Origin: a virus
Strand: one strand, 5' to 3'
Virus record (IMG/VR): IMGVR_UViG_3300017917_003388
Span: 32,001-96,000 of that record
Length of the DNA: 64,000 nucleotides
Part shown: one piece after another, positions 25,309 to 45,346 of the stretch
Layout of the letters: every line of letters starts with the position of its first letter
Position numbering within the stretch: position 1 is the stretch's first letter
Made by a program: the position numbers and the translations under genes
Notes under the pieces: generated by a model
Database searches by the model: none
Seen by the model: only the letters and a program-made list of their open reading frames with translations
What the model was told of the DNA's origin: nothing

Positions 25309-25926
25309 ATGAGTTTAAAACATTTTCAATCAAAAATAGGTGTTCAAGCAGATGGAGATTTTGGTCCAGGAACATTTTTAGCCGCAATGAAATATTTAAA
25401 ACTTACTCCAATTAGAGCAGCTCATTTTTTTGGTCAAACATCACATGAAACTAATGAATTTTTAATATTTACTGAAAATTTAAATTATTCTGAATCCGGT
25501 TTGAAGACTACTTTTGGTAAATATTTCCCTGGTAACTTAGCATCACAATATGCTCGTCAACCTGAAAAAATTGCTAATAGAGTATATGCTAATAGAATGG
25601 GGAATGGAAATGAAAATTCGGGGGATGGATGGAAATTTAGAGGTAGAGGTGCTATTCAATTAACAGGTAGAGAAAATTATTTAGCATTTTCTAAATATAT
25701 AAATAAACCCGAAATAATGGTTAATCCAGATTTAGTATCTAATGAGTATGCTTTTGAATCAGCATTGTTTTTCTTTGATAAAAATAAATTATGGAATATA
25801 TGTGATGGTGGAATTGACAAAAACACAATATTAAAATTAACTCAAAGGATAAATGGAGGTACCAATGGTTTATCGGATCGTGAGTCTAAAACTATAAAAT
25901 ATTATAGATATTATACTTTAGGTTAG
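25309..25926 (+). CDS. GH19 endolysin with an N-terminal peptidoglycan-binding-like motif
   Basis: DGDFGPGT; HET...ENLNYS; FRGRGAIQLTGRENY; INGGTNG. Confidence 0.9.
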   Translation: MSLKHFQSKIGVQADGDFGPGTFLAAMKYLKLTPIRAAHFFGQTSHETNEFLIFTENLNYSESGLKTTFGKYFPGNLASQYARQPEKIANRVYANRMGNGNENSGDGWKFRGRGAIQLTGRENYLAFSKYINKPEIMVNPDLVSNEYAFESALFFFDKNKLWNICDGGIDKNTILKLTQRINGGTNGLSDRESKTIKYYRYYTLG

Positions 25927-25952
25927 TTTGATAATGGTACTTTAATTGTTGT
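25923..25952 (-). pseudogene. Orphaned former thyA 3' end (TTIKVPLSN*)
   Basis: Matches the present thyA end PTIKLPLSN* on the other side of the HEG. Confidence 0.8.
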
Positions 25953-25962
25953 AATATAATAA

Positions 25963-26742
25963 TTATTCTTTGTATTTCCAAACATAATCAAAAGCGGTTT
26001 TTTGTCTTCCTTTTAAACAAGCTGTTATACATGAATTGTTGATTGATTTTCCAAAATATTCAAGAGCATCTTTAATAGATTTAAACTCCTGAATTATATT
26101 ATTTTGTTGATCAAGTTGAAGAATGGGTTTACTATTTTTTTCTCCTATTAATTTATGATCAATCCTTGATTTAATTAAATTTCCAAATCCTGGGGGTTTA
26201 GGTTTAGAATTAGCTTTACTTATTTTTTGCTTAGTTTCCTCAGAGATAGGTATTCCTTTATTACTATGAACTTTACTATGTTTTTTACCTTTATTTCCTT
26301 TGCTAATTTTTTCTTTCATTTCACCACTCATAAATCCATCAGGTTTAGGTTTACCTTTATTACCATGGATTCTTCCTTCAGGTATATTATATTTTTGTCC
26401 TGTTTTAGCTTGAACTATTTTTTGTTTTTGCTCTTCAGTAAATTTATTTCCTAAAGCAATAATCTCCCCTCCAATACTTTTGTTTAGTAATATACCATCA
26501 GGTTCTATTCCTTTTCTTCCATATTTAGCTATAAATTCCATCTCAAGAGAACATGCTTCTTCTTTAGTAAGATTTTCTTTAATTATATCTACTATAGGTT
26601 CACCATGTTTTTTAATATAATTCTTATAATGAGAATTCCTTCCTGAGATAAAATCCCATGCTCTTTTATTTGCCCCTATTCCAACATAGAATAACTCTTT
26701 AGTTAGTGGGTTTTTATGATGGTATAAATAATAATTTTCCAT
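25963..26742 (-). mobile_element. Free-standing GIY-YIG-like homing endonuclease (NUMOD3/NUMOD1)
   Basis: YLYHH...FYVGIG...RA; KPILQLD...KTAFDYVWKY. Confidence 0.85.
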
Positions 26743-26795
26743 AAGTCTATCAATATTCCGTTGATTATAAATATATGAAAAATATATTTTTTACA

Positions 26796-27908
26796 CTAAT
26801 TTGATAATGGAAGTTTAATAGTAGGATGATATTGATAACCAATTAATTCAAAATCACTAACTTTATAATGAGATATGTCATCAATATTACTATATATTTT
26901 TAATGTAGGTAATTCAAATGGTTTTCTATTTAATTGTTCCTTAATAGGTTCTACATGATCTAAGTATAAATGTACATCTCCTAAATTTCCTATTAATTCA
27001 TCTGGGATCATATTAACTTGTTTAGCAATCATTTCTAATAATAAACCATAAGATGCTATATTAAAACCTAATCCTAACCCAGTATCTACTGAACGTTGAT
27101 TCCACATTAATGATATTGCTCTACGAGGAATATTTATATCATCTAATTGCTTATGTAATTGTTCATCTTCATCAACTTTCGTAAAAAACTTTATGTTTAA
27201 TGATACTTCATAATGATTAGAACCAGCTATAAACCCTCTTTCTTGTAAACTTAATTCTCTAGTATAGAACTGGAAAAAGTTATGACATGGTCTTAATATC
27301 ATTTCATCCAACTCACCAACATTCCAGGCAGATACAATTATACCTCTATCATCTGGATTTGTTTTAAGTTTTTCAAGAGCTTCTTTAATTTGGTCAACAG
27401 ATTTTCTACTTGGGATTTCACCCATATACGACACCAATTCACCATATTCCCAACTTCTCCATTGCTTACCATAAATTGGCCCCAATTCACCCCACGTCTT
27501 AGCAAAGTCATCATCTGTTTTGATTTTGTTGATGAATTCTTCTTGTGTATATAAAGTTGCACCAGAATGACCATTATCTAATAAAACAGGTTTTAACCAT
27601 TTAGGATTAGAATTAAATTGATTATGTGTTATATAGTTCTTATAAGCATCACCATCCCAAATATGACAATTGTTATCAACAAGGAATTTGATGTTGGTAT
27701 CACCACGTAAAAACCATAGTAGTTCTGTTACAATTTGTTTCCAACCCATCTTTTTGGTTGTAAGAAGTGGAAACCCTTCACTCATTTTATGACGGATTTG
27801 TCTACCGAATACTGATAGGGTTCCAGTACCAGTTCTGTCTTTCTTTTCTACTCCATTGTCAAGAATGTCTTGAAGGAGTGCTGTATATGTTTTATCTAGG
27901 TTGTTCAT
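26796..27908 (-). CDS. thyA: Thymidylate synthase
   Basis: DRTGTGT, LGPIYGKQWR, RPCH, QRSVD...FNIASY. Confidence 0.95.
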   Translation of the reverse strand: MNNLDKTYTALLQDILDNGVEKKDRTGTGTLSVFGRQIRHKMSEGFPLLTTKKMGWKQIVTELLWFLRGDTNIKFLVDNNCHIWDGDAYKNYITHNQFNSNPKWLKPVLLDNGHSGATLYTQEEFINKIKTDDDFAKTWGELGPIYGKQWRSWEYGELVSYMGEIPSRKSVDQIKEALEKLKTNPDDRGIIVSAWNVGELDEMILRPCHNFFQFYTRELSLQERGFIAGSNHYEVSLNIKFFTKVDEDEQLHKQLDDINIPRRAISLMWNQRSVDTGLGLGFNIASYGLLLEMIAKQVNMIPDELIGNLGDVHLYLDHVEPIKEQLNRKPFELPTLKIYSNIDDISHYKVSDFELIGYQYHPTIKLPLSN

Positions 27909-28071
27909 TTTTTAAATAATATCTTTCACATTCAGGTTGAATACATCCAATAGACCGACCAAAAAATACAAATCTTTTTATTTCGGTAGATTTACATATT
28001 GGACAAGTTCCATAAGTACCTTCCGTTATTATTCTAGTTAGTGGTGGTTTTGGTTTATCTAGGTTGTTCAT
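27892..28071 (-). CDS. 59-aa zinc-ribbon protein that begins with the thyA start sequence
   Basis: Manual translation MNNLDKPKPPLTRIITEGTYGTCPICKSTEIKRFVFFGRSIGCIQPECERYYLKNEQPR. Confidence 0.65.
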   Translation of the reverse strand: MNNLDKPKPPLTRIITEGTYGTCPICKSTEIKRFVFFGRSIGCIQPECERYYLKNEQPR

Positions 28072-28256
28072 TCTTTAATTAATTTACTTCTTAAATCCTT
28101 AAGTATTATATACCAATTATTGGCTTGTTCTGTATTATATTTCATATCACGTTTTTCACCATAGGTTACTTTCATACTATAATGTTGAAAATTATTCCAA
28201 GTTGTTTTGTATTCTTGGAGGTGGTCTGTGTATGTTTTATCTAGATTGTTACTCAT
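28068..28256 (-). CDS. Hypothetical protein with a thyA-like N-terminus
   Basis: MSNNLDKTYTDHLQ versus ThyA MNNLDKTYTALLQ. Confidence 0.6.
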   Translation of the reverse strand: MSNNLDKTYTDHLQEYKTTWNNFQHYSMKVTYGEKRDMKYNTEQANNWYIILKDLRSKLIKE

Positions 28257-28270
28257 AACTTTCTATTGTT

Positions 28271-28417
28271 TTATTCGTTGTCGTTGATAATACTTTTAAG
28301 TTTTTTAATTTCTGCAATTACCTCATCACCCAATTCAATTTTAGACATCATTACTAGGTCCACTACTTGATTTTGTAGTAATTCAATTAGTGCGTCTTTC
28401 GCTTGTTCTTTATTCAT
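28271..28417 (-). CDS. Small 48-aa hypothetical protein
   Basis: Manual translation MNKEQAKDALIELLQNQVVDLVMMSKIELGDEVIAEIKKLKSIINDNE. Confidence 0.6.
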   Translation of the reverse strand: MNKEQAKDALIELLQNQVVDLVMMSKIELGDEVIAEIKKLKSIINDNE

Positions 28418-28435
28418 ATAAAATATATCAAATAT

Positions 28436-28861
28436 TTATTCCTTTGGTTTAATTATTATTTCTTCATCATTGTAATATACATGTGTTAGACCACGAATAT
28501 TATCATCTTTCCATCTAATAGGTCCTATTTTCATATTTAAAAACTCCTCGGAACTCATTTGTTCCTTCAATCGAATGTAGAATACAAGACAATGACCTAT
28601 ATCTTCAATTAGCGATTCGAAATTTTCTCTTGTAACAAGTCTTGCCAAATCTTCAATATTCCATATACGATGATAAATCTCTGTCGCAGAATTATCTACT
28701 AAAAGAGATTTATCTAATTCTTCTATATTATTTTCTAAAATAGTAGCAATTGCTCCAACTATTTCTTTTGGTCCAAATGAAGTTTTCCAATCACATTCTT
28801 CTGTAACGTTATCTACCCACTCCATATAGAGTTTATGTAGTTTTTCTCTATCAATTTCCAT
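28436..28861 (-). CDS. Hypothetical protein
   Basis: ORF track. Confidence 0.6.
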   Translation of the reverse strand: MEIDREKLHKLYMEWVDNVTEECDWKTSFGPKEIVGAIATILENNIEELDKSLLVDNSATEIYHRIWNIEDLARLVTRENFESLIEDIGHCLVFYIRLKEQMSSEEFLNMKIGPIRWKDDNIRGLTHVYYNDEEIIIKPKE

Positions 28862-28872
28862 ATGTATTTAAA

Positions 28873-29106
28873 TCACATTAATTTAGCATATTTAACAATA
28901 CCTGACATTTTTTTATTTTCAACAATGAAAAACTCAACTTCAGGATTAACATCAATCCTTGAATCCAAATTATCAAAATTACGTTCTAATTCTAATAAAT
29001 ATTCCACATCTTCTGAAATTAAGGGTAATTGTTTATCTGAATTATCAATATCCTTATATTTAACAGACCATATTTTATATCTATCTCTAACTAATATTCC
29101 TATCAT
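28873..29106 (-). CDS. Hypothetical protein
   Basis: ORF track. Confidence 0.55.
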   Translation of the reverse strand: MIGILVRDRYKIWSVKYKDIDNSDKQLPLISEDVEYLLELERNFDNLDSRIDVNPEVEFFIVENKKMSGIVKYAKLM

Positions 29107-29107
29107 T

Positions 29108-29746
29108 TTATTTTAATTGGGCTCCATTTAATGTTATAGCATGGAGAAATTCTTCACGAATTAAATTACCAGGTTCCATAAATACACCACTGAATTTATT
29201 GGTGGTCATAGTTGAAGTAGGATGCTTAATACCTCGATTTGAACAACACATATGTTTTGATGAAATACTAACTGCTACTGATTTACATTCTAGTTTATCT
29301 GTTAAAAAATCATGAATTTGTTGAGTTAATGATTCTTGCATTTGGGGGCGACGGGCAAACCAATCTACTACTCTATTTAATTTAGATAAACCAACTACTT
29401 TTTCCCCAGGAACATATGCTACTGAAGCATACCCTGTGAATGGAAGATTATGATGAGCACAAAGTGATACAACAGGAATACCAGTTTGAATTACTACACC
29501 AGTATAATTTTCTTCATTAGGAAACACTGTCATTGATGGTTCTTCTGTAATTGAGCCTAGTACTAGATCTTTTAACCAGGCTTTAGCTACACGACGAGGA
29601 GTGTCAATAGTTTGAGGATCAGCAGTATAATCAAACCCCATTGAATTTAAAAAGTTTCCATAATGTAGAGCTGCTTCTTTAATCATACTCTCAATTTCCT
29701 CAGGAGTACGAGGTCTGTTCTCATTTGCTTTTTGAATATATTTCAT
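29108..29746 (-). CDS. folE: GTP cyclohydrolase I
   Basis: TPRRVAK, SLCAHHNLPF, GLSKLNR, QE.LT, HMC...RG. Confidence 0.95.
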   Translation of the reverse strand: MKYIQKANENRPRTPEEIESMIKEAALHYGNFLNSMGFDYTADPQTIDTPRRVAKAWLKDLVLGSITEEPSMTVFPNEENYTGVVIQTGIPVVSLCAHHNLPFTGYASVAYVPGEKVVGLSKLNRVVDWFARRPQMQESLTQQIHDFLTDKLECKSVAVSISSKHMCCSNRGIKHPTSTMTTNKFSGVFMEPGNLIREEFLHAITLNGAQLK

Positions 29747-31360: not shown

Positions 31361-32071
31361 TTATACATTTAATGTTTTTAATTTTTCTTCAATATTGTCA
31401 TTATAAGATAATATAAGTAAATCAATATTGTTATCCAAACAATATTGCTTTTTTATTTCATCTCTTTGTTTAAGGTATTCAAATCCTTTTTCACCTCCAA
31501 AAAATGTAACTGGTTTATAATGTTGTAAACCATTATACTCAATTAACATATTATGTTTGGGTAAATAAAAATCATAATAATGATATGAATCTTTAATTTT
31601 TACTTGATATTGATAGATATATTCTATATTATTTCTATTTAACCAAATACCTACTTGTTCTTCTCCTTTATATATATTACATTCAGGACAGTTACTTTTT
31701 GCATATAAATGAATAGATGGTTTTTGAAAAAAAGATCCATGTTTTGAACATATAATTTCTACTTCCTGATAAAGATTTTGGTAGTTTATTTTAGAGTAAT
31801 CATATATGTCATTATGGATCTTTTTTGCTCTTTCTAAGAATTGTTCTTTTGTTATTTGTTTAGGATTAGGTCTTCGATTTTGACATTTTAAACACCCAAA
31901 TCCTTTATATAATACTGATGGTGGTTTGTTTTCTATATTTCCACAGTTTTTACATATCAATTTAACATTAGAATGAGCATCTTTATAAGATAATAAAGAA
32001 TAATCAAATTTATCTATACCAAATTTAGATTCTATTCGTTTTATGAAATCGTCTTGAGTTAACTTATGCAT
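31361..32071 (-). mobile_element. Free-standing endonuclease (zinc-binding repeats plus PD-(D/E)XK/DUF559-like domain)
   Basis: Two YDYS...C..C/H...C..C repeats; YDFYLP...IEYNGLQHY. Confidence 0.8.
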
Positions 32072-44272: not shown

Positions 44273-45346
44273 TTATTCCTCTTCTATTAAAGGAATAGAA
44301 TCTTTACTTTCTTCCCATTCTGAAGTATCTTCTATTAAGTCTACATCCACGCTACCTAATATACTAACCCATTCATTTGCATATTTTTTCTTATATGATG
44401 CTATATCTTGTTCATTGATAAAACCATGAATTGTAGCTATTACTGTACTTTTTGTTTGGAGTCCAGTAACGTGGTTTTTATCACAAGCCACTTTAGTACG
44501 AACAGCAAATTCAACTTCTTTTCCATTTTTAGTAGCTTTAATTTTACTAGTACCACTATTAGTAATATTACCAAATGTAAGCACAATCGAAGCATCTAAA
44601 AACATTGTCTCACCATTTTTCATTTTCATTTTGGGTTGAGCCATGATATTTTCAGCAGGAGCAACCCATATTTTATTAATAGCTACTAATGAATTTGTAT
44701 ATGGAGAGTTTTCTTTTCTTGATAAAGGAAAACGTTGATTAATAAAATTACCAAATTGCTGAGACATAGCTCCAGCATTCCACATTGGATTATTTTTGTT
44801 TGCTTCTACACTCATTTTACAAGGAATAGAACCTATTGAATCCCAAAAGAAACATAAATCATAAGGTAAATTACCTTTACGTTGTTCATCTAGTAAATCA
44901 GCTATAAATTCAGCTACATCTTCAATTGTATTTAAAGAACTTCTATCAGCATATATAAAAAATCCTTTATAATCTGTAACTTCTCCTGTATTTTCATCAA
45001 TTACATCTTCAATTTGGAATCCCATCTGTTTAGCATGTTCCCAAGACCATTTCATTTCAGTAATTATAAATACTGGTAATATTCCCATTTTCTGAGCACT
45101 AATTGCTAATTCAAGTAAAGCTGTAGTTTTACCTGTATTACTATGTCCTCTTAACAATGTAATATGACCTAATGGAGCACCAGGGATAGAAATAGAATCT
45201 TGTAATGCTTTTGAAAATTGAATCCATTTTTGCTCTTTAAACTTAACAGTTGAATTTAATGATTTTTTTTCTTTAAACTTATCAAGATTAAAGTCCGATT
45301 TCAGTTCAGCACTAACTGCTGCTGAAAGTGATGATTTTTTAGCCAT
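44273..45346 (-). CDS. uvsX: RecA/UvsX-like recombinase
   Basis: GHSNTGKT, WDSIG, KNH. Confidence 0.8.
   Translation of the reverse strand: MAKKSSLSAAVSAELKSDFNLDKFKEKKSLNSTVKFKEQKWIQFSKALQDSISIPGAPLGHITLLRGHSNTGKTTALLELAISAQKMGILPVFIITEMKWSWEHAKQMGFQIEDVIDENTGEVTDYKGFFIYADRSSLNTIEDVAEFIADLLDEQRKGNLPYDLCFFWDSIGSIPCKMSVEANKNNPMWNAGAMSQQFGNFINQRFPLSRKENSPYTNSLVAINKIWVAPAENIMAQPKMKMKNGETMFLDASIVLTFGNITNSGTSKIKATKNGKEVEFAVRTKVACDKNHVTGLQTKSTVIATIHGFINEQDIASYKKKYANEWVSILGSVDVDLIEDTSEWEESKDSIPLIEEE

Follow-up and report, generated by a model that had tools for sequence, protein, structure and literature searches.

Copies of the thyA start at the heads of small upstream genes in a virus genome: a putative junction for cassette shuffling

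Introduction

Phages carry many small genes whose function is unknown, and how they acquire and exchange these has long been asked. Clear examples of the old "linker" model of modular exchange are few besides the promoter-early stem-loop elements (PeSLs). In T4-type phages, PeSLs are intergenic repeats of about 100 bp that carry an early promoter and a stem-loop terminator (PMC2839356, PMC4122927), and their exchange has been proposed to be homologous, to proceed without a dedicated recombinase and to supply the expression signals of the moved gene (Arbiol et al. 2010, PMC2839356; Comeau et al. 2014, PMC4122927). Here we describe a locus within a 64,000-nucleotide stretch (the window) of the virus record IMGVR_UViG_3300017917_003388, positions 32,001 to 96,000, where small genes placed before the thymidylate synthase gene thyA begin with a sequence, called S, copied from the 5' end of thyA; the same is seen in many freshwater relatives of this large uncultured phage. 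We consider it probable that these genes are promoterless cassettes bounded by S and shuffled by homologous recombination at this thyA-derived, dual-coding junction.

The shuffling mediated by PeSLs appears to be the closest published analogue. In both cases short repeats flank small accessory open reading frames (ORFs) in plastic regions, and the insertions and deletions that distinguish relatives are bounded by repeats. In contrast to a PeSL, S has neither a sigma-70-like promoter nor a terminator; it lies inside coding sequence, comes from the first codons of an enzyme gene, codes in two frames and would provide a translational rather than a transcriptional signal. Because S is coding and enzyme-derived, every cassette protein has a chimeric N-terminus. 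Mini-circles were shown for PeSLs, whereas the S arrays are known from sequence comparison.

Other systems share particular traits with this locus. Integrons (IntI, attI, attC) also keep a row of promoterless cassettes in the same orientation beside a fixed platform gene, with variable content and order; however, the genome studied here lacks an IntI-type tyrosine recombinase, its cassette boundaries lack an attC-like imperfect hairpin, and the S boundary is a direct repeat within coding sequence. In fungal mitochondria, mobile endonuclease ORFs (mORFs) bring a replacement gene end and create hybrid genes. As with mORFs and free-standing homing endonucleases (PMC2988022), insertion duplicates an end of the target gene, which stays intact; this holds exactly for an endonuclease gene at the 3' end of thyA and conceptually for the 5' cassettes. 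Unlike mORFs, the 5' cassettes are devoid of endonuclease genes, can be only 41-62 codons long, and stand several in a row with a repeat each. The contact-dependent inhibition (CDI), Rhs and Maf loci contain arrays of orphan toxin/immunity modules, each after a short stretch homologous to the main gene. There too, alternative modules are preceded by main-gene homology which permits homologous recombination, but it is the C-terminus of the main gene that is replaced, whereas here thyA is unaltered and donates its N-terminal end to unrelated genes. A full-text literature search found no description of thyA-start sharing. In this sense, the array may be classed as a variety of repeat-mediated modular shuffling, with a repeat unlike that of PeSL, integron or endonuclease systems, and its linker would be explicit: 18-50 nt taken from a conserved metabolic gene, within which one gene stops and the following one starts.

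The thyA start and its copies

The window belongs to a virus record of 174,694 bp with direct terminal repeats and 27% G+C. The minus strand carries every gene of this part of the window, in the order thyA, ORF2, ORF3, more small ORFs and folE. The genes and repeat copies in question are:

26796..27908, minus strand: thyA, intact thymidylate synthase of 370 amino acids and anchor gene of the array (Pfam PF00303, E 2.6e-96)
27892..28071, minus strand: ORF2, a zinc-ribbon-like cassette gene of 59 amino acids with four cysteines, its head MNNLDK copied from thyA
28068..28256, minus strand: ORF3, a cassette gene of 62 amino acids, with 15 thyA-like codons fused to a conserved body
27868..27908, minus strand: repeat copy S1, the thyA start codon and codons 2-14 (by sequence comparison)
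28054..28071, minus strand: repeat copy S2, identical to the thyA start over 18 nt, or over 19 nt if the preceding A is counted (by sequence comparison)
28213..28256, minus strand: repeat copy S3, ATGAGT and a 38-nt copy (84%) of thyA codons 2-14, of the MSN type

Residues 6-368 of ThyA align with positions 1-264 of the 266 of the PF00303 profile, a full-length match. A previous reading of this DNA without database searches (the sequence-only reading) had reported an exact 18-mer, ATGAACAACCTAGATAAA, at the thyA start (27891-27908) and at the start of the 59-amino acid ORF (28054-28071), together with a 23/25 match at 28226-28250. We confirmed both, and the second match widens to 38 nt at 84% identity (28213-28250 vs 27868-27905). 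It had also noticed that three consecutive proteins open with M(S)NNLDK and then diverge, and this is the case: ThyA begins MNNLDKTYTALLQDIL, ORF2 MNNLDK-PKPPL and ORF3 MSNNLDKTYTDHLQEY-KTT. The third copy of the 18-mer, at 28236-28253, has 3 mismatches, while the thyA and ORF2 copies agree over 51 nt at 80% identity, including about 18 nt before the ATG. At up to 3 mismatches, five matches to the 18-mer were seen where 0.33 were expected, and each of 100 shuffles gave fewer than five; the motif AACAAYCTAGATAAA is found at only these three sites in the whole 174.7-kb genome.

Two trivial origins of the shared starts were discarded. Chance is ruled out by the shuffles and by the recurrence in independent lineages. 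A genome-wide habit of shared heads is ruled out as well, since only the thyA trio shares its start, bar two low-complexity pairs: the other neighbouring genes with a common N-terminus in this genome comprise only one lysine-rich start and one signal-peptide pair.

The copies also join adjacent genes. ORF2 ends at 27892 and thyA starts at 27908, a 17-nt start/stop overlap in which the first 17 nt of S1, read in the other frame, encode the ORF2 tail and its stop (KNEQPR-stop). S2 overlaps the ORF3 stop (ATGA), and it is at S2 that the alignment between the window and the related locus L103, described below, starts to be identical.

Arrays upstream of thyA in related phages

Eighty IMG/VR loci with a related ThyA (54-68% identical) were sampled, and each ORF start was scored against the ThyA head of its own locus, the maximum of the reverse-strand control being 27. 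In these loci and the window, scores above the control were obtained solely by ORFs directly upstream of thyA: a 213-amino acid ORF in L061 with 23 residues in common with ThyA, a 114-amino acid ORF in L029 with 15, ORF3 of the window, and an 87-amino acid ORF in L029/L049. The sequence-only reading expected variable ORFs in this place, and the region is indeed not invariant: relatives hold 0 to 4 unrelated small ORFs opening MN[NK]LDK. At least 15 families were found, each with M-N-[NK]-L-D-K at its start, and most of the ORFs terminate inside the next repeat copy with the same 17-nt start/stop overlap. Examples are L029, L049, L061, L043, L092, L103, L106 and L109; further ones are L137/L185, L143, L153, L202, L207, L210, L219 and L220, which a pattern scan of IMG/VR returned, together with L131 and L183 (the latter paired with L143), as arrays of 1-3 S-headed ORFs. 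Up to four such ORFs follow one another among L103, L106, L137 and L220.

With regard to frequency, S-headed upstream ORFs are present in at least 12 of 65 thyA loci that were selected for carrying the pattern; among 57 loci selected on the ThyA protein only, the 17-nt dual-coding overlap occurs in 10 and S-headed ORFs in 3 to 4. The closest cultured phage, Flavobacterium phage immuto, whose thyA DNA is about 68% identical to that of the window, has a ThyA that begins MNNLDK, and S-headed ORFs are absent upstream of it.

The length of the copied S ranges from 3 to 23 codons, third-codon positions being copied too, and head-body junctions fall also after codons 8, 10, 15, 17 and 23. The occupants of the array change from locus to locus. 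An ORF3 homologue stands directly before thyA in L086-L091, L095 and L101; between the two genes, L092-L094 and L100 have a 71-amino acid ORF that opens MNKLDK-LIECG, and the window has the zinc-ribbon ORF. In L099 the ORF3 homologue precedes a thyX-like gene that shares only ATGAACAAC, the first three codons, with S. There (L099:225-878) the thyX-like gene, with the motif HHTPFE, sits in the place of thyA and is followed by an HNH ORF.

One upstream match, in L051, lies inside a 602-amino acid ORF and was judged to be due to chance. In the outer part of the arrays, ORFs opening MIRLIK or MIKLIK (L185:6670, L219:340) also overlap the preceding ORF by 17 nt, and these overlaps may be decayed or variant S junctions.

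Gain, loss and mosaic identity of the cassettes

The clearest case of a recent difference is the pair L029 and L049, which are about 99% identical upstream of thyA and differ by one clean 328-bp segment. This segment consists of the body of the 114-amino acid ORF plus one repeat copy, and it is flanked by 46-nt direct repeats that correspond to thyA codons 1-15. Past the junction, the two thyA genes differ more than the upstream flanks do, as would be expected if the incoming DNA included part of thyA.

Near-identical cassettes were also found in diverged genomes. The ORF2 segment of the window (28072-27891) is 98.9% identical over 182 nt to that of L103, with an identical body, while the thyA genes are 72.7% identical; the identity begins in the left S and ceases at the last base of the right S. 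The neighbours differ, since the order is ORF3, zinc-ribbon gene, thyA in the window and o86, zinc-ribbon gene, o93, thyA in L103 (o86 and o93 being two other cassette ORFs). ORF3 of the window (28250-28063) is 94.7% identical to that of L099, where the downstream gene is the thyX-like one. L185 and L220 share a 51-amino acid cassette at 95% identity vs 74% for thyA. Both the zinc-ribbon and the o93 cassettes are common to L103 and L106, and L106 has two extra cassettes between them, one with 17 thyA codons. The homologue of o86 in L109 opens MNKELNPKDIKYG vs MNNLDKTY-NLKDIKYG in L103.

The sequence-only reading saw in the thyA 5' end an anchor where genes are added serially. The repeat-bounded gain and loss, and the near-identical cassettes in diverged genomes, speak for the anchor; addition does not always run serially or at thyA itself, as cassette order varies and any two repeats can flank a cassette. 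The ORF3 head comes from another thyA lineage. This head and its 6 upstream bases (AAAGTT) best fit the MSN-type thyA start of L017/L019 (38/48 plus 6/6, vs 34/48 for the thyA of the window itself) and, therefore, the three copies in the window do not stem from one local duplication.

The foreign head of ORF3 has another possible meaning, that an older thyA start stayed behind. The copies would then be static scars, left by local tandem duplication or by an earlier replacement of thyA, which became joined to open frames accidentally and no longer take part in gene movement; the thyA-like head retained by the ORF3 homologue of L099, even though a thyX-like gene has replaced thyA, fits this view too. 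However, the ORFs are conserved families under purifying selection (see below), individual cassettes reappear in other orders and beside other genes, and the L029/L049 difference is recent and bounded by repeats. We regard static scars as very improbable, and the mosaic identities already largely refute them.

Products of the small genes

Thirteen homologues of ORF2 were collected, in which C23, C26, C43 and C48 are invariant, with the spacing CxxC and CxxxxC. Its AlphaFold2 model is poor, with a predicted local distance difference test (pLDDT) of 54, and the zinc-ribbon fold is putative; there was no Pfam match. ORF3 has 18 homologues of 61-66 amino acids, all opening MNKLDKDYQALLQEY-like, and because most of them terminate in KNEQTR-stop, their stop lies in the next S. 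The ORF3 model (pLDDT 91) is a two-helix hairpin, with helices at residues 2-31 and 38-61; the thyA-derived residues are predicted to form the first half of helix 1 and to pack against helix 2. If so, fusion to S may be one route by which new proteins gain a borrowed N-terminal helix. Neither product had a known domain above the cut-offs of a Pfam/PHROG-type search, and tblastn in 50,697 phage records gave zero matches for ORF3 and one weak match for ORF2. Profile scans of IMG/VR and of JGI metagenomes with the ORF3 and ORF2 alignments gave only 1, 3 and 4 loci, and most homologue contexts were obtained by exact-protein look-ups. The ratio of nonsynonymous to synonymous substitution rates (dN/dS) is about 0.2 for the body of ORF2 and 0.12-0.58 for that of ORF3, and both small genes are under purifying selection.

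The heads of the homologues depend on where the genes lie. Beside an S junction (window, L103, L109) the zinc-ribbon homologues open MN[NK]LDK-PKPPL. Elsewhere they read MKQKPAPPL (L097), MIPPKPTPPL (L232, after a dCMP deaminase gene), MDKPKPPL (L233, before thyX), or MIEKEDYL... with a 31-residue extension (L022), so that the NNLDK head in unrelated contexts, which would count against copying from thyA, was not seen for zinc-ribbon homologues away from thyA. Likewise, L102 has a distant homologue of the ORF3 body with an unrelated 40-residue head and no adjoining thyA. That homologues away from thyA carry other heads is not without exception: in L231 a zinc-ribbon gene opens MNNIDK with no thyA within 2.5 kb downstream. 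The array to which this gene belongs is based on another kind of junction, B, which is described in the last section.

In unrelated phages the zinc-ribbon family adjoins thyA/thyX or dCMP deaminase genes (L233:2501-3589, L232:2082-2665, L096:3001-3533), a neighbourhood which hints at a role in nucleotide metabolism.

The place of the thyA-derived residues in a confidently predicted helix of ORF3, and the conservation of its head across the 18 homologues, would also agree with a functional leader. In this explanation the start is kept for a translational operator or re-initiation coupling to thyA, or for a role of the N-terminal peptide, and the footprints of recombination are secondary. It gains from the nature of S, which is A-rich and unstructured, with no Shine-Dalgarno-like sequence before it, and from the conservation of the 17-nt overlap in many loci; RNA structure at the three starts of the window was not above that of shuffled sequences (z -0.11, +0.97, -0.59). 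On the other hand, the copied length varies from 3 to 23 codons and includes third-codon positions, and such a role leaves unexplained the 99%-identical S-bounded cassettes in diverged genomes. S is not a general operator either, because it occurs nowhere else in the genome. A functional leader is distinctly unlikely as the whole explanation, and it is compatible with cassette mobility rather than an alternative to it.

Enzymes and signals at the array

Nuclease or recombinase domains were found neither in ORF2 and ORF3 nor in 10 cassette proteins from relatives, and the tyrosine recombinase profile PF00589 had no match in the 174.7-kb genome, while it was present in all 14 control genomes. 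No inverted repeats or hairpins were found at the cassette boundaries. Promoter-like sites matching the sigma-70 consensus, the only one used, numbered 16 in 26700-29200 vs 18.1 expected, with none at the three repeats, and no terminator-like sites were found in the scanned array region. Thus the earlier statement that there is no recombinase gene stands for the array and for tyrosine recombinases, but not for the whole phage, which has a RecA/UvsX-like gene. The features that bear on this question are:

44999..45217, minus strand: matched part of a RecA/UvsX-like ORF of 359 amino acids, outside the array, a candidate general recombinase (PF00154, 27.3 bits, barely above the cut-off)
25963..26742, minus strand: free-standing homing-endonuclease-like gene directly after thyA (Pfam NUMOD3, E 1.3e-9; PHROG 314 homing endonuclease, E 3.7e-20)
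25923..25952, minus strand: second copy of the thyA 3' end, TTIKVPLSN-stop, just beyond the endonuclease gene (the end of thyA itself is PTIKLPLSN-stop)

The RecA/UvsX-like match corresponds to record positions 76999-77217 and belongs to the single RecA-like ORF in the genome. In the endonuclease-like gene (25963-26742) an N-terminal GIY-YIG-like motif was read by eye. In L103, the ORF after thyA terminates in ..SHPTIKAPLSN. Given the copies of the thyA 3' end, past the endonuclease gene in the window and after thyA in L103, the ends of thyA are duplicated on both sides.

A different explanation is site-specific mobilisation, in which a dedicated enzyme (the thyA homing endonuclease or an integron-like recombinase of relatives) targets S, and cassettes spread by cut-and-repair or by site-specific exchange. 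In its favour, the join falls exactly after codon 6 in many independent cassette families, and thyA is a homing hot spot crowded with endonuclease genes: the window has the endonuclease gene and the duplicated 3' end, some relatives have a split thyA, and in 23 of 82 loci an endonuclease-like ORF is found no more than 3 kb from thyA. Breaks made by endonucleases are also known to take flanking DNA with them (PMC2790892). However, no endonuclease or recombinase is found inside any cassette examined, S has no hairpin, the genome lacks a tyrosine recombinase, and the junctions at codons 8, 10, 15, 17 and 23 do not respect a single site. Moreover, the arrays are not associated with a nearby endonuclease (5/14 vs 18/68, p 0.52, in a crude tblastn test). 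Altogether, a dedicated enzyme acting on S seems unlikely to us.

Regarding the split genes, in L086 (3182-5527), L090 (3182-5404), L095 and L101 thyA is divided into two ORFs by a GIY-YIG/NUMOD or HNH ORF, and L087 has the same thyA uninterrupted. The split thyA is either intron-like or a fractured gene.

Proposed mechanism

In the homologous shuffling that we favour, S codes in two frames: in one it opens the downstream gene and supplies its initial codons (M-N-N/K-L-D-K...), and in another it closes the upstream gene with its final residues and stop (..N-E-Q-x-R-stop). Owing to this dual coding, a cassette would be a gene body plus its 3' S, headed by the S already present. Because all related phages possess S at least once, at thyA, and beside it a long homologous thyA, a cassette could enter a naive genome. 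Entry would take place by ordinary homologous recombination, with the left crossover in S (18-50 nt) and the right one in thyA or in the next S, and loss would result from recombination between two S copies, which deletes the DNA between them. Since the array encodes no enzyme, the catalyst is presumed to be the general recombination of the phage (the RecA/UvsX-like protein).

New cassette types may arise when a gene from upstream of thyA is joined illegitimately behind codons 6-23 of the thyA of another phage, a join that would swap the short head of the gene for the thyA head. In our reading, joins after codon 6 are common because this is the first position that spares the stop of the upstream gene. 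The A-rich, unstructured S, once copied, would serve the moved gene as an initiation or re-initiation signal, which would be expected for hosts like Flavobacterium, where Shine-Dalgarno pairing is not used. The homologous rather than site-specific nature of the exchange, and the origin of the first fusions, are inferred.

Several points weigh against this mechanism. The recombination step is deduced from comparing sequences, and no event was observed directly. In at least 9 unrelated cassette families the body follows directly on codon 6 of the thyA head, which could suggest a site-specific cut, and 18-22 nt is short for efficient homologous exchange. MNKLDK alone was also seen at some 40 unrelated single sites of IMG/VR, hence a 6-codon match by itself is weak evidence. 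Copies of S are closer to the resident thyA S than to those of other genomes (13.66 vs 13.06 of 15 positions, permutation p 0.001), which speaks for the mechanism, but this similarity is partly confounded by shared descent. Finally, the relatives are all metagenomic contigs and, because there is no close relative of the whole genome, the array of the window was compared cassette by cassette and not with a sister genome.

In a broader and more tentative proposal, which we hold possible but somewhat short of probable, the overlapping start/stop junctions S and B (TAGAAAGTTATGA) might be universal linkers of an undescribed, recombinase-free cassette system in a large group of uncultured freshwater phages, these being probably phages of Bacteroidota; such a system would move small genes between distant phages and give each protein the head of an enzyme. 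As the footprints of S can be read straight from metagenomes, the process is testable, and they provide a simple rule for locating mobile accessory genes beside conserved anchor genes.

Junction B and other shared starts

Upstream of ORF3 two further features mark the distal side of the array:

28257..28265, minus strand: remnant of another type of junction, B (TAGAAAGTT before ATGA), which in relatives bounds other cassettes
28271..28417, minus strand: ORF4, a conserved small gene of 48 amino acids at the distal edge of the array, whose homologues adjoin thyA-start arrays in L210 and L219

The ORF3 start of the window is a hybrid of junction B and S. Junction B reads TAGAAAGTTATGA(A/G)TAA; in L231 (L231:86-900) it stands at the head of four small ORFs in succession, and it recurs in relatives (L103:332, 537; L106:2544, 3001), where the upstream ORF terminates in ..SYE-stop or ..RKL-stop. 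As a general feature of the genome of the window it was ruled out, with only 2 exact copies.

Some ThyA proteins (L025:5977, L035:1790, L046:1364) have an N-terminal extension in which their own head seems to be partly repeated in tandem, as in MKNIDIK-NNTLDKQY. Relatives also have other neighbouring small ORFs that share 8-14 N-terminal residues and then diverge, with heads such as MKKSELQQIIREEI, MNKEQQELLDE and MSKQTAVEW (L003:8465/8802, L008:4525/5067, L041:1266/2676, L053:5300/5506, L078:8935/9155); these pairs may reflect the same process at other anchors, or paralogue families. Outside the window, the record has an exact 87-nt direct repeat (record positions 104450-104536 and 104819-104905, 369 nt apart), the longest of the genome except for a 9-nt periodic array at about 150640-150800 of the record.

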